This document shows positions 5,012-40,134 of a stretch of 64,000 nt of DNA, one piece after another. The position numbers were made by a program, and so were the translations under genes. Source of the stretch: an archaeon GW2011_AR15 (lineage in GTDB: Archaea > Nanobdellota > Nanobdellia > Woesearchaeales > GW2011-AR15); assembly GCA_000830295.1 (NCBI GenBank), contig CP010425.1, forward strand, positions 992,001-1,056,000, given 5' to 3'. Position 1 is the stretch's first letter. Every line of letters begins with the position of its first letter. The notes under the pieces are model-generated. The model was not told where the DNA came from. It saw only the letters and a program-made list of their open reading frames with translations, and did no database searches.

Positions 5012-5095
5012 ACGCCAGCGCCCGGATTCCCAAATGAGCAAAGCGAATGGGTGCCAAAAATCTGTGATTTTTGAGCATGTTCAAATCCGGCAATC
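5012..5095. repeat. duplicate of tRNA-Ser 3' end plus hairpin cassette
   Basis: 5012-5028 is identical to 5106-5122; hairpins at 5029-5051 and 5055-5073; 5079-5090 is an inverted copy of the T arm. Confidence 0.85.
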
Positions 5096-5106
5096 TAAAA
5101 AATAGA

Positions 5107-5212
5107 CGCCAGCGCCCGGATTTGAACCGGGAATCCCCGAAGGGACCAGCTTGCTTTTCCTGATTACTCAGGTACTCAAGGCTGGCGCAATACCGGGTTA
5201 TGCGACGCTGGC
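5107..5212 (-). tRNA. tRNA-Ser(UGA) with 23-nt intron at 37/38
   Basis: Acceptor GCCAGCG/CGCTGGC, anticodon stem CCAGC/GCTGG, long variable arm, T loop TTCAAAT, relaxed BHB. Confidence 0.93.
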
Positions 5213-19969: not shown

Positions 19970-20679
19970 TAAAAAGGCTTTCCACAGTTACGTTATCCCA
20001 GCAAATTCCGCAAAGGGGCACAGGGAAAAAAATTTCTAGGGATGAAGCAATTGTTTATGATTTTATGCCTGCTGTTCTTGGAAATAAATTCAGGACAAAT
20101 GAGATTCTTTCAAGGATGTTGTTAAGGCGAGCACCAGAAACTGCTCCATTTATGCTGCTGACTGATGCCTACGAGGAATTAGGCCTAAGATATGCGGGGG
20201 AGGGAAGCATAATCCCTGCCTTGGAATGCTACAGGATTGCCCTGCAAAGCAGAACTAGTTTTGCAAGAGCAATGGGGCTTATTCAGGGCAAAGCACTGCA
20301 TGATGAAAATGAAATAGACCACATGACACTTTCAGACAGCCTTGAGCAAAGACTTGTAGGATTAGTGGCAGAATCTGAGAAAGAGGTTGATTATGTTGCC
20401 TATAACTCATGGATTGAAGAACTGAGGGAAGCTCAGAAGAATTGGTGGAGATTAAACAGGACCCAGCATGGCTCTGAAAAATACATAGAAGCTTGCCTGA
20501 AGATTGGAGAATACCAGGAAGCCCTGGCAAGCGCAGAGGTTCTAAAAGACAGCAATCTGATTAGGAAAGTAAAAAAGGCGCAGCCACCGGAAATTCTTGA
20601 TTTAGATTTCCTGAAAAAATATATCAACGATAATTATCCTGACAGCACAATTGGCAGGGACTCGGTAGGGGTTATGTGA
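19966..20679 (+). CDS. hypothetical alpha-helical (TPR-like) protein
   Basis: AYEELG...ALECYRIAL and IGEYQEAL segments. Confidence 0.6.
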   Translation: MIKRLSTVTLSQQIPQRGTGKKISRDEAIVYDFMPAVLGNKFRTNEILSRMLLRRAPETAPFMLLTDAYEELGLRYAGEGSIIPALECYRIALQSRTSFARAMGLIQGKALHDENEIDHMTLSDSLEQRLVGLVAESEKEVDYVAYNSWIEELREAQKNWWRLNRTQHGSEKYIEACLKIGEYQEALASAEVLKDSNLIRKVKKAQPPEILDLDFLKKYINDNYPDSTIGRDSVGVM

Positions 20680-20772
20680 GCTCTTTCTCGCTTATGTTCG
20701 GAAAATAAAATTTGCAAAAATAGCAAATTTTATATACAATACTCTACTAGGGAATAGTCAGAAGGTGATAGC

Positions 20773-21186
20773 ATGCCGGAAGATGACATTCGCAGGTTGA
20801 GAAAAGATATTGATTCACTGAAAGATGATATGCAGACAAGGGATTCGCTTGCCCGCTCTGTTAATTCTTTGCTGAAGATATTCGAGGAAGCATCCAAAGA
20901 CCTCAAGATGGACACAAGGGATGCTGTCCTTATATCGGAAAAGATGGATAATATAATGAGGCGGCTGGAAAGGCTGGAAACCCATAATGAGAAGATTGCC
21001 AAGGGAATTGTGGCAATAGCGGACATGCTTGAGGAAAAGGGATTTGCCAAAGTGCAGAAGGGCGAATCAAAATCAATCCTGGCAAGCGCAACCCCTCCGC
21101 CAGCTATGGGCAGCACAAAGCAGCTGCCAACATATGATATCCCTAAAGATGAAAGGAAAAAGACATTTCTGAATTTCAAGAGTTAA
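20773..21186 (+). CDS. hypothetical coiled-coil protein
   Basis: GAAGGTGA Shine-Dalgarno-like motif; heptad pattern. Confidence 0.7.
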   Translation: MPEDDIRRLRKDIDSLKDDMQTRDSLARSVNSLLKIFEEASKDLKMDTRDAVLISEKMDNIMRRLERLETHNEKIAKGIVAIADMLEEKGFAKVQKGESKSILASATPPPAMGSTKQLPTYDIPKDERKKTFLNFKS

Positions 21187-21187
21187 A

Positions 21188-21619
21188 ATGCCCGGTTTTG
21201 AACAGTATAACACGGAAAGAGTAAAGACTTTTCTAAAATACCTTGTGCACGCTGCGGCAAAACATAAGCCTGAGAGAGCAGTAATCAGGGAATTGAGAGA
21301 GCAGCGGGAAGAAAGGCTTGTTCCGGCAATAAGGAAGAGGCCTGAGAGGCTCCATATACCTGGCAGTGCAGAAAGGCTTTCTGTAATAACAGATGAGAGA
21401 AAAGAAGAGCTTGAAGTGAAGATAAAGATGCACCACACAAGAAACAGGTTTCTTCCATACGAGCTAAGGCTGAAAAAACTAAAGAAGAGGTATGCAACAA
21501 TAAAGAGAAGAAAAATCTCCACCAAGGCTGATAAGAGAAGGCTGGAAGTGCTGAATAACAGGATAGAAAGATGCGAGAGCCTGCTGAAAGAATTAAAAGC
21601 CAATGCCCACGAATATTAA
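21188..21619 (+). CDS. hypothetical basic protein
   Basis: ORF starts directly after the previous gene. Confidence 0.6.
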   Translation: MPGFEQYNTERVKTFLKYLVHAAAKHKPERAVIRELREQREERLVPAIRKRPERLHIPGSAERLSVITDERKEELEVKIKMHHTRNRFLPYELRLKKLKKRYATIKRRKISTKADKRRLEVLNNRIERCESLLKELKANAHEY

Positions 21620-21624
21620 CTACC

Positions 21625-21705
21625 TCAGATATCTCTTGCCATAAGAGTCTCTGTTTTAAGAAAACAGAGGACAAAACAAGTGGGTTTCGCTTCGCTCAAG
21701 CCCAC
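21625..21705. repeat. synonymous duplicate of histone-fold gene 3' end plus two hairpins
   Basis: 21625-21648 matches 21711-21734 at 20/24 nt; hairpins at 21649-21669 and 21680-21705. Confidence 0.85.
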
Positions 21706-21710
21706 AGAAA

Positions 21711-21875
21711 TTAGATATCCCTTGCCATTAGTGTCCTTCTTCCGTTTGCAGTTGCCCTTTCAAGAGCCTTCTTTATGACGCTCTCGACTTTCACATTGAG
21801 TGCAGGGTAAAACTCTTCTGAGATATTAACGTCCCCTACAATCTGCTTTATCTGGGCTTTTGTTACCAGGTACAT
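21711..21875 (-). CDS. histone-fold protein (DUF1931-like), 54 aa (not in ORF track)
   Basis: MYLVTKAQIKQIVGDVNISEEFYPALNVKVESVIKKALERATANGRRTLMARDI; R-T-x4-D L2 signature; GAGGTG Shine-Dalgarno-like motif. Confidence 0.88.
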   Translation of the reverse strand: MYLVTKAQIKQIVGDVNISEEFYPALNVKVESVIKKALERATANGRRTLMARDI

Positions 21876-21884
21876 ATGACCACC

Positions 21885-23066
21885 TCACATTTCTATGAAC
21901 TTGGGTTCATTATTAATTCTTAATAATTTCCTAACCATCAGTATCCACAGCGGGCTTAGGAGCAGCGCCATGCATATAACTGAAATAATGAGCTTGTAGC
22001 CGGATTCCTCTATGAATCCTATGCTGTAGCCCGCAGTGCCGAGGAGGAAACTGAACTCTCCTATCTGTGCAAGCAGCGCGCCCGCATAAATGCTTTCCTT
22101 CCTGCTGTTGCCAAGCATCATAAGGATAACTGTATTGATAATATTGTTTGTAACAAAGACAGCCAGGGTTATGAGCCCGATGATGAGGAAGTTGCTGAAA
22201 AGGAAAGATAAATCAAATATGAGCCCAATGTAGATGAAAAAAACAGCGACAAACAGGGCCCTGAAAGGCTCAAGGTTTTTCACGACCCAATGAGTTACCC
22301 TGGACTCTGCAACCAGGATTCCTGCAAGAAAGGCTCCCAGGGCAGCAGAAAGCTGAAAAAACAGGGCTATTGAGGCAAGGCCAAAGCATAGGATAATTGC
22401 AGCAAAAATCTGGAGATCATAGTCTTTTTCCAGCTTTCCGACAAGAACATTCATGACTTTTTTTCTTCTGATAAACATGGCGACTATGAAAGTCAATACT
22501 ACCATAATTGTACCTATTATGCTTAGCTGGAAATTCCCAGTTTTTCCCTGTCCGGACATAAAGTTCAGCAGTATAAGCATCGGAACAATCAGCAGGTCCT
22601 GGATAAGCAGTATGCTCAGCACGTTCTGTCCGACTGCAGTAGAGAGCTCGTTCCAGCTTTCAAGCAGCTTCATGGCAACTGCCGTGCTGCTTATGCTTAT
22701 AACAAAGCCGACCAGGAGAATCCTCTGGAAGCTCCAGTCAAAAAAACTGCCCACAAAAAATACAGCCAGCACGCTTAGGATTATCTGGGAAATCGTCCCG
22801 AAAACAGCAACCTTCCAGCTGGAGATAATCTTTGAGATGGAGATCTCCATGCCAATAAAAAACAGAAGAAGGATTATGCCTATCTCTGCTGTAAGGTCAA
22901 CAAACGGAGTCTTCTCCAGCATAGAAAAGCCAAAGGGACCTATTATCATCCCGGCAATGATATAGCCTATTACATAAGGCTGCTTTATGTAATTCATGAG
23001 CAGGGTGATAACAAAGACAATAAGCGCGGCAAATACGCCAAAAAGTAGGAATTCTGATACTGCCAT
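21885..23066 (-). CDS. cation:proton antiporter (CPA2/Kef-like)
   Basis: ISSTAV, LLIQD, LGAFLAG, QIGEFSF. Confidence 0.9.
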   Translation of the reverse strand: MAVSEFLLFGVFAALIVFVITLLMNYIKQPYVIGYIIAGMIIGPFGFSMLEKTPFVDLTAEIGIILLLFFIGMEISISKIISSWKVAVFGTISQIILSVLAVFFVGSFFDWSFQRILLVGFVISISSTAVAMKLLESWNELSTAVGQNVLSILLIQDLLIVPMLILLNFMSGQGKTGNFQLSIIGTIMVVLTFIVAMFIRRKKVMNVLVGKLEKDYDLQIFAAIILCFGLASIALFFQLSAALGAFLAGILVAESRVTHWVVKNLEPFRALFVAVFFIYIGLIFDLSFLFSNFLIIGLITLAVFVTNNIINTVILMMLGNSRKESIYAGALLAQIGEFSFLLGTAGYSIGFIEESGYKLIISVICMALLLSPLWILMVRKLLRINNEPKFIEM

Positions 23067-40046: not shown

Positions 40047-40134
40047 GGGCCGGTAGCTCAGCTTGGTAGAGCACCTGACTTTTACCTTTAAGGGAGAAAT
40101 CAGGTGGTCGCGAGTTCGAATCTCGTCCGGCCCA
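40047..40134 (+). tRNA. tRNA-Lys(UUU) with 14-nt intron at 37/38
   Basis: Acceptor GGGCCGG/CCGGCCC, anticodon stem CCTGA/TCAGG, TTCGAAT. Confidence 0.93.

Follow-up and report, generated by a model that had tools for sequence, protein, structure and literature searches.

A histone-fold gene ends twice around a 62-nt two-hairpin insert

The window, i.e., the whole stretch of 64,000 nt that was analyzed (archaeon GW2011_AR15, contig CP010425.1, positions 992,001 to 1,056,000), carries on its minus strand a 54-amino-acid (aa) histone-fold gene whose last codons occur a second time before the stop codon of a convergent gene. The features of the locus, in window coordinates, are as follows.

21188 to 21619, plus strand: gene for a 143-aa basic protein, convergent with the histone gene and fixing the likely ancestral junction (homolog convergent in 11 of 20 relatives)
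21625 to 21648, minus strand: copy 2, displaced TLMARDI-TGA beside hp1, separated by 5 nt from the convergent stop codon, the likely ancestral spacing
21649 to 21669, plus strand: hp1, 9-bp stem free of mismatches, closed by a 3-nt loop (with covariation of the outer stem among copies)
21670 to 21679, plus strand: A-rich conserved linker, GACAAAACAA (from the alignment of family copies)
21680 to 21705, plus strand: hp2 (type A), 8-bp stem with a conserved T-G pair, inner 2-bp stem, and 3-nt loop (from near-identical copies beside tRNA genes, covariation, and fold)
21706 to 21710, plus strand: module tail AGAAA, linking hp2 to the copy 1 stop codon (short tails are alike in other members)
21711 to 21734, minus strand: copy 1, working end of the gene (last seven codons and TAA), continuous with the body and located on the hp2 side
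21711 to 21875, minus strand: 54-aa histone-fold gene of the short type, helix alpha-3 absent, the intact target (from the open reading frame and PDB matches)

The product of the histone-fold gene matched solved structures in the PDB up to its last residue (9f2c_A, E = 1.3e-8; short histones 8fvx and 8cmp, E of ~3e-5), and its match to the Pfam family CBFD_NFYB_HMF (E = 0.0085) fell below the cut-off. The similarity to solved short histone-fold proteins, which ends at the R-T..D loop, suggests that it belongs to the short, alpha-3-less prokaryotic histones.

On the minus strand, copy 1 (21734 to 21711) reads ACA CTA ATG GCA AGG GAT ATC TAA, and copy 2 (21648 to 21625) reads ACT CTT ATG GCA AGA GAT ATC TGA, the offset between their starts being 86 nt. 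A first-pass annotation made from the letters alone had reported two TLMARDI-stop ends 86 nt apart, which the sequence bears out. It had also described all 4 differences in the 24 bases as synonymous; three are indeed synonymous third-position changes, whereas the fourth is a TAA/TGA stop-to-stop swap. The similarity stops, exactly where that annotation placed its end, at 21649, the first base of the hairpin CTCTGTTTT-AAG-AAAACAGAG. Identical runs common to the two copies span at most 8 bases (7 to 8).

The match between the copies is not a chance one. When all 24-mers on both strands of the 1,157,790-bp genome were compared with copy 1, only copy 2 lay within 5 mismatches, with the runners-up at 6 (1 case) or 7 mismatches (8 cases). 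Just 15 of the 63 single-base changes possible in the seven sense codons are synonymous, and the chance of three synonymous changes plus a stop-to-stop change is ~0.003. Logan contigs from three other runs spanned the histone junctions with 0 differences (X8 record 12, 21150 to 21717; X10 record 3, 21661 to 21830; X15 record 9, 21497 to 21658), so the duplication is not an assembly quirk of a single data set, in agreement with the first-pass view that this is no assembly duplicate. The assembled contigs of 4 runs displayed neither joints nor variants at the insert, bearing in mind that contigs drop rare variants.

The 62 nt between the copies comprise hp1, the linker, hp2, and the tail, and together with the second version of the last 24 bases they make up the 86 nt of added DNA. 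The insert itself is a dispersed two-hairpin element of 62 nt, and the hairpin flagged in the first-pass annotation makes up one of its halves. This module lies downstream of the stop codon and antisense to the histone gene. The predicted fold of the 62 nt has an energy of -20.4 kcal/mol (z = -3.6) for the plus strand, versus -17.4 kcal/mol (z = -2.6) for the minus strand. The 62-nt insert contains no gene, integrase genes included, and inspection revealed no terminal inverted repeats, its ends having only TCTGT inverted in common. No Rfam match at an E value of up to 1 was obtained within 20500 to 23000, and a scan for bacterial-type terminators, which is not designed for archaea, found none. 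The fold also lacks the two 3-nt bulges 4 bp apart of a bulge-helix-bulge motif; bulge-helix-bulge splicing of the 86 nt, which had been entertained as a candidate, is unsupported by it.

Copy 2 likely keeps the ancestral junction

Homologs of the histone gene were present in 36 of 41 genomes. In all 20 relatives' loci fetched, the gene ended at the same residue, and none of the 20 had a second copy of the gene end within 1.5 kb. The locus held no tandem histone paralog, island, or provirus in any relative searched. The first-pass annotation had envisaged an island or provirus between the two copies, and none was encountered here or in those relatives; the scenario that it had set against its own idea, a full tandem histone paralog, was seen at 0 of 20 related loci. 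The alignment of orthologs that it had proposed for identifying the ancestral 3' end was run as well. Both states occurred among the orthologs at all 4 diagnostic sites, with same-genus loci favoring copy 1 at three of them and copy 2 at one.

The 143-aa product of the convergent gene had no match in Pfam or NCBIfam, and in 9 of the 11 relatives with a homolog the gap between the stop of that gene and that of the histone gene was -54 to +9 nt. Here, the two stops are 91 nt apart, or 5 nt apart if counted from copy 2. Since the latter value falls within the range of the relatives, copy 2 appears to keep the ancestral junction, and the 86 nt represent a lineage-specific insertion.

The other side of the histone gene also differs among relatives. 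A 393-aa Na+/H+ exchanger gene (window positions 21885 to 23066, minus strand) lies between the GlxRS and histone genes and abuts both; in 9 of 20 relatives, the two are direct neighbors, with GlxRS upstream. Among the 20 relatives, the best match to the exchanger was 43% identical and the others were 30% identical or less, and the gene looks like a second lineage-specific insertion at this locus, judging from these comparisons. In a genome of another genus (L012 in G009), the histone stop is followed by a strongly folded insert of 171 nt (-48.7 kcal/mol) that has, facing the convergent gene, a 9-bp hairpin resembling hp1 and no recognizable gene-end duplicate.

The insert belongs to a dispersed family found at tRNA genes, in tRNA introns, and at protein gene ends

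BLAST searches of its own genome found the hp1 and linker again at 97% identity beside the Nop10 gene and hp2 at 90 to 96% identity beside tRNA genes. A covariance model, R1, was built from the alignment of the 13 own-genome copies, and a search with it gave 13 copies in the 1.16-Mb genome. Of its 19 base pairs, 12 had changed on both sides, and 0 of 500 shuffles reached the observed values. R1 matches were obtained in 18 of the 41 genomes searched, the present one included, and in 14 of 19 other genomes of the same family.

Among 27 relatives' loci that were fetched, 6 lay inside canonical tRNA introns (ARAGORN, introns allowed) and 9 within 60 nt of a tRNA gene, with the remainder at protein gene ends or at places that could not be assigned. 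In the present genome, the module targets the 3' ends of tRNA-Ser, -Asn, -Pro, -Met, -Leu, and -His and of a tRNA that ARAGORN calls Phe, these genes being on the strand opposite to it, and the 5' end of tRNA-Arg, which is on its own strand. At tRNA-Gly(CCC), the module forms the body of a canonical intron and is not accompanied by a duplicate. Protein gene targets in this genome were detected by a repeat scan that was independent of the module: the 5' ends of the genes for Cpn60, Hsp70, Nop10, and a 326-aa product and the 3' ends of the genes for a class II aminoacyl-tRNA synthetase (aaRS), PTH2, and two unnamed products. The named targets, assigned by Pfam (Cpn60, Hsp70, class II aaRS, PTH2, and Nop10), are conserved genes, as is the histone gene.

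Some of the inserts at protein gene ends use a third type of hp2. The hp1 and linker as found at the histone gene occurred in 6 metagenome contigs (L093 to L098); in these and at a loose end in run X14, a stretch of 30 to 34 nt identical to the histone one is joined to an hp2 of type A, B, or C. Because the identical hp1 and linker are joined to three hp2 types in different organisms, hp1 and hp2 reassort as separate units. Exact patterns of either histone gene-end allele were absent from the collections of genome contigs and metagenome contigs, and the exact pattern of hp1 plus linker was absent from the collection of genome contigs, these collections possibly leaving out the record of the present genome itself. 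A search of the open-access full-text literature returned no description of such elements.

The window and the genome around it hold several further features. At tRNA-Ala(TGC) (window positions 5012 to 5122), the 3' end of the gene is duplicated (17 identical nt plus an A-run) around a 77-nt insert; this other in-window gene-end insert is of a different type and has no R1 match. At 40047 to 40134, ARAGORN reports the anticodon TTA ("Stop") with introns disallowed and a tRNA-Ser(AGA) with a 14-nt intron with introns allowed, an uncertain call. Introns were reported by ARAGORN in 27 of the 39 tRNA genes of this genome. The module at the end of the Nop10 gene, which has its hp1 in common with the histone insert, lies ~1.2 kb from the genome's only strong match to a tyrosine recombinase (1153920 to 1154396, outside the window), which may simply be XerA.

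Modules face the gene body and are flanked by duplicates of variable length

End-located modules follow one layout. Read from hp1 to hp2, it consists of the outer flank, a partial copy of the gene end, hp1, the linker, hp2, a short tail, the complete gene end, and the gene body. The intact gene was on the hp2 side in all 20 duplicate-flanked modules inspected in the present genome, whether at a 5' or a 3' end, and in 11 of 12 in the relatives, the side being undeterminable in the remaining one. At 3' ends, the module is antisense to its target gene. The gene-end duplicates range from 14 to 68 nt in length.

A transposon-like miniature element (a MITE, a PATE, or a casposon-like element) could in principle leave such a picture by making a long target-site duplication whose copies are identical at birth and diverge later. 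Such an origin would suit a module that is dispersed, multicopy, noncoding, and rich in hairpins and whose end-located copies each lie between direct repeats of the target. A fixed staggered cut, however, does not fit duplicates of such varied lengths, a symmetric duplication predicts no tie between orientation and the side of the gene body, and terminal inverted repeats are not in evidence. Furthermore, among the only families of this kind that were searched for, the Y1 transposase (Y1_Tnp), Cas1, and reverse transcriptase (RVT_1), none was found in the present genome.

The two copies of a gene end differ as alleles do

In 16 pairs of protein gene ends, codon differences comprised 22 synonymous changes, 3 nonsynonymous changes, and 1 stop swap. 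The 9 pairs in the present genome, 5 of them informative, contributed 10 synonymous changes, 0 nonsynonymous changes, and the stop swap, and the 7 pairs in relatives and metagenome contigs contributed 12 synonymous and 3 nonsynonymous changes; in one of the latter (L048), 7 of 11 codons had changed, all 7 synonymously. In a freely decaying copy, roughly half or more of the differences are expected to be nonsynonymous, and the probability of at least 22 synonymous changes among 25 is 1e-5 if 45% are expected. The first-pass suggestion that both copies bear the mark of coding constraint is supported, with exclusively synonymous differences seen again in further members.

The count for the present genome depends on the start codon assigned to Cpn60. 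The second ATG (MAAKQI, preceded by GGGGG) was chosen because the first ATG is missing from the native copy, which has ATA at that position. With this choice, four apparently nonsynonymous differences fall in noncoding sequence; if the upstream ATG were the true start, the own-genome count would become 10 synonymous versus 4 nonsynonymous. The Cpn60 copy that adjoins the gene body holds, in addition, a relic of the last codon and stop of the upstream gene (GAA TGA versus GAA TAA), and the intergenic part of this pair has diverged more than the coding part.

At PTH2, an identical inner block is followed by diverged, clearly homologous C-terminal tails (KITGSLKLI-stop versus GITSELKLM-stop), and at an ATP-grasp gene on metagenome contig L094 an identical inner block is likewise followed by diverged tails, here of weak likeness. 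In both cases, the gene runs straight into one of the tails, with the other one displaced, and these gene ends are replacement ends. On L094, where hp1 matches at about position 400, the module with its 66-nt duplicate lies 11 codons before the native stop of the ATP-grasp gene, which we take to be RimK/LysX-like; the working gene now ends in 9 codons derived from the tail of the element and the start of hp2.

Given that the differences are mostly synonymous (22 versus 3) and that two pairs have diverged tails beyond the repeat, the two copies look like alleles of a gene end rather than a decaying target-site duplication. Several pairs are still identical (39 nt at Hsp70, 37 nt at the 326-aa gene, and many tRNA pairs), and these fit a surrogate end or a target-site duplication equally well. 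All told, the synonymous excess, the replacement tails, the varied repeat lengths, and the fixed orientation make an unlikely case for a miniature transposon at these sites.

A surrogate gene end probably accompanied the insert

We favor, with somewhat better than even confidence, the view that a tiny noncoding element recombined within the end of the gene and brought a surrogate for that end with it. This view starts from direct observations, namely, that the insert belongs to a family, that it is an insertion relative to the kin, that the orientation follows a rule, that the duplicates vary in length, and that the copies differ as alleles do. The element would arrive as a small unit together with a surrogate version of its target's end, which would be an allele from another lineage or genome copy. 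This unit would recombine within the conserved gene end in a Campbell-type fashion, like attP with attB, and the gene would be rebuilt beside hp2 with its old end displaced beyond hp1. The intermediate may be circular or terminally redundant, with recombination as the presumed joining step, and candidate enzymes include a XerA-like tyrosine recombinase of the host, a helper integrase acting in trans, or annealing-based recombination. The present genome has one strong and one weak match to tyrosine recombinases.

Recombination with a surrogate end would account for the copies differing only in ways that a working gene tolerates. That most named targets are highly conserved also agrees with a process in which donor and recipient have to be similar. 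The insert sits between direct gene-end repeats, one belonging to the rebuilt gene and the other a displaced partial copy, and the copies differ in the manner of inherited attP/attB-type mismatches; the integrase and element genes that would ordinarily lie between such repeats are absent. Of the models considered, an attP-style surrogate end, in line with the first-pass proposal of an attP-style replacement, gives the best fit, and sequence patterns suggest that this end may have been imported from a homolog.

Several observations weigh against a surrogate end. The 8-base identity of the histone copies suffices for the overlap of a tyrosine recombinase but is poor for general homologous recombination, and a double-stranded circle of 86 to 130 bp is physically awkward. 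The insert is devoid of genes, and a full-length parent element was found in neither the present genome, nor 40 relatives, nor IMG/VR. No evident core sequence is common to the targets, which counts against a single site-specific integrase.

The parent may instead have been a large integrated virus or plasmid, of which a scar is left: attL and attR would be kept, the interior deleted, and hp1 would mark one end of the parent and hp2 the other. By the accounts in PMC3293823 and PMC13626634, a rebuilt gene next to directly repeated gene-end sequence is the signature of archaeal and bacterial integrative elements, and the free combination of hp1 with three types of hp2 is what separate ends might show. 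A scar is nevertheless hard to reconcile with the same ~60-nt product, conserved linker included, occurring at no fewer than 20 sites across this and other genomes. Moreover, no gene lay between hp1 and hp2 in any own-genome copy or in the 27 relatives' loci. A degenerate hp2 pattern matched IMG/VR 24 times, plausibly the chance level by a rough estimate, and the best of these matches scored 20.8 bits with R1, versus 50 to 80 bits for true copies. We therefore regard deletion from a larger provirus as improbable.

An origin at the RNA level was also considered, in which the module and one repeat would be removed from transcripts like an intron, or would serve leader or trailer processing, and both copies would be selected in place. 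The family members inside canonical tRNA introns, at tRNA-Gly(CCC) here and at 6 of the 27 relatives' loci, speak for such a role, as does the splicing endonuclease encoded in this genome. On the hp1-to-hp2 strand, G-T pairs outnumber A-C pairs by 21 to 11, with 10 of the 21 stemming from one conserved column, a weak hint that this strand is that of the folded form. At 3' ends, however, the module is antisense to the target gene, and splicing at matching points of the two direct repeats would call for a self-complementary helix; the pairing predicted here between the two GATATC palindromes is a plain helix without two 3-nt bulges. Processing of transcripts would also leave the replacement tails at PTH2 and L094 unexplained, and we consider it quite improbable, slightly more so than the two preceding alternatives.

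Finally, the duplicate could be what is left of a second, tandem histone gene, or an artifact of assembly. In favor of this, one relative (G014) has fused double histone folds at other loci. It is nonetheless highly improbable, since a tandem copy is present at 0 of 20 related loci, the sequence upstream of copy 2 is the dispersed module rather than decayed coding sequence, and contigs of three other runs reproduce the junctions. The G014 fusions are found on two contigs (C35 and C85), at each of which two histone-fold matches lie in one open frame of 118 aa that is 37 to 38% identical to the 54-aa gene.

Implications of a proposed surrogate end

Building on recombination with a surrogate gene end, we tentatively raise a broader possibility, to which we give appreciably less credence. 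The module could be selfish DNA that has no enzyme of its own and derives from tRNA introns, spreading within and between archaeal lineages through recombination at the ends of conserved genes, for which it would bring working replacements; tRNA introns, 5' leaders, and tRNA genes that are split or fragmented could originate in the same way. With regard to the origin and movement of archaeal tRNA introns and split tRNA genes, the module ties the spread of introns to a testable recombination event. If true, this reading would supply a concrete mechanism for the movement of archaeal bulge-helix-bulge introns, and the module would extend the known integrating elements by a member that is very small and has no gene.

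What is at hand already matters for annotation. The same module serves as the body of an intron, as an insert in tRNA leaders or trailers, and as an insert at protein gene ends, and with each end-located case comes an allele-like spare end of the gene. This accounts for many short "pseudogene ends" and "tRNA fragments" in the genomes of these small archaea, and caution is warranted in that the first or last codons of their conserved genes may be foreign.

Comparison with known systems

MITEs, REP/REPIN sequences, and the palindrome-associated elements derived from IS200/IS605 are short, noncoding, hairpin-forming, multicopy, and mostly intergenic; they have a short fixed duplication or none and depend on a transposase. 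The module resembles them in all of the former traits, the mostly intergenic location included. It differs in its long, variable, allele-like repeats and in its strict orientation toward the gene body, and a Y1 transposase was not found in its genome. CIMEs, the cis-mobilizable, att-flanked remnants of integrative conjugative elements, lack a recombinase of their own and are presumably moved in trans; they are kilobase-sized, bacterial, and tied to one att site. The module is like them in its repeat (att) flanks and in having no recombinase of its own but unlike them in size, host, and range of targets.

The archaeal bulge-helix-bulge introns of tRNA genes are comparable in that the same two-hairpin module forms the body of canonical introns in the present genome and in relatives. 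Unlike these introns, the histone copy lies outside the coding region, antisense and between direct repeats, and has no recognizable bulge-helix-bulge motif.

Integrative elements that rebuild their target gene provide a parallel for the gene end itself. By the account in PMC13626634, prophage e14, which is integrated in icd of Escherichia coli, leaves a displaced icdC pseudogene with synonymous or conservative differences, and by that in PMC3293823, SSV1 has a 44-bp repeat of tRNA-Arg, and the attP/attB mismatches of archaeal elements in tRNA genes pass into the rebuilt gene. As far as these accounts go, e14 and SSV1 are like the module in that the gene is rebuilt beside the insert, a partial end is displaced to the far side, and the differences are mostly synonymous or conservative. 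In contrast, they are kilobases long and have their own integrase, whereas the module is 62 nt long, devoid of genes, present at many targets, and structurally related to tRNA introns.

A precedent for a link with introns is the proposal of Sugahara et al. (2012; PMC3293823) that attP × attB recombination led to the gain of tRNA introns and to tRNA fragmentation in Caldiarchaeum subterraneum. Both cases, on the evidence in that account, link partial repeats of tRNA genes, integrating DNA, and intron-like sequence, with attP/attB mismatches being inherited. The Caldiarchaeum insert, however, is described there as 1.8 kb long, recombinase encoding, and confined to a single tRNA locus, whereas the module is tiny, multicopy, and found at the ends of protein genes as well. 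The present analysis contributes the histone locus, the count of own-genome layouts, the orientation rule, the statistics of synonymous differences, and the cases of replacement tails.
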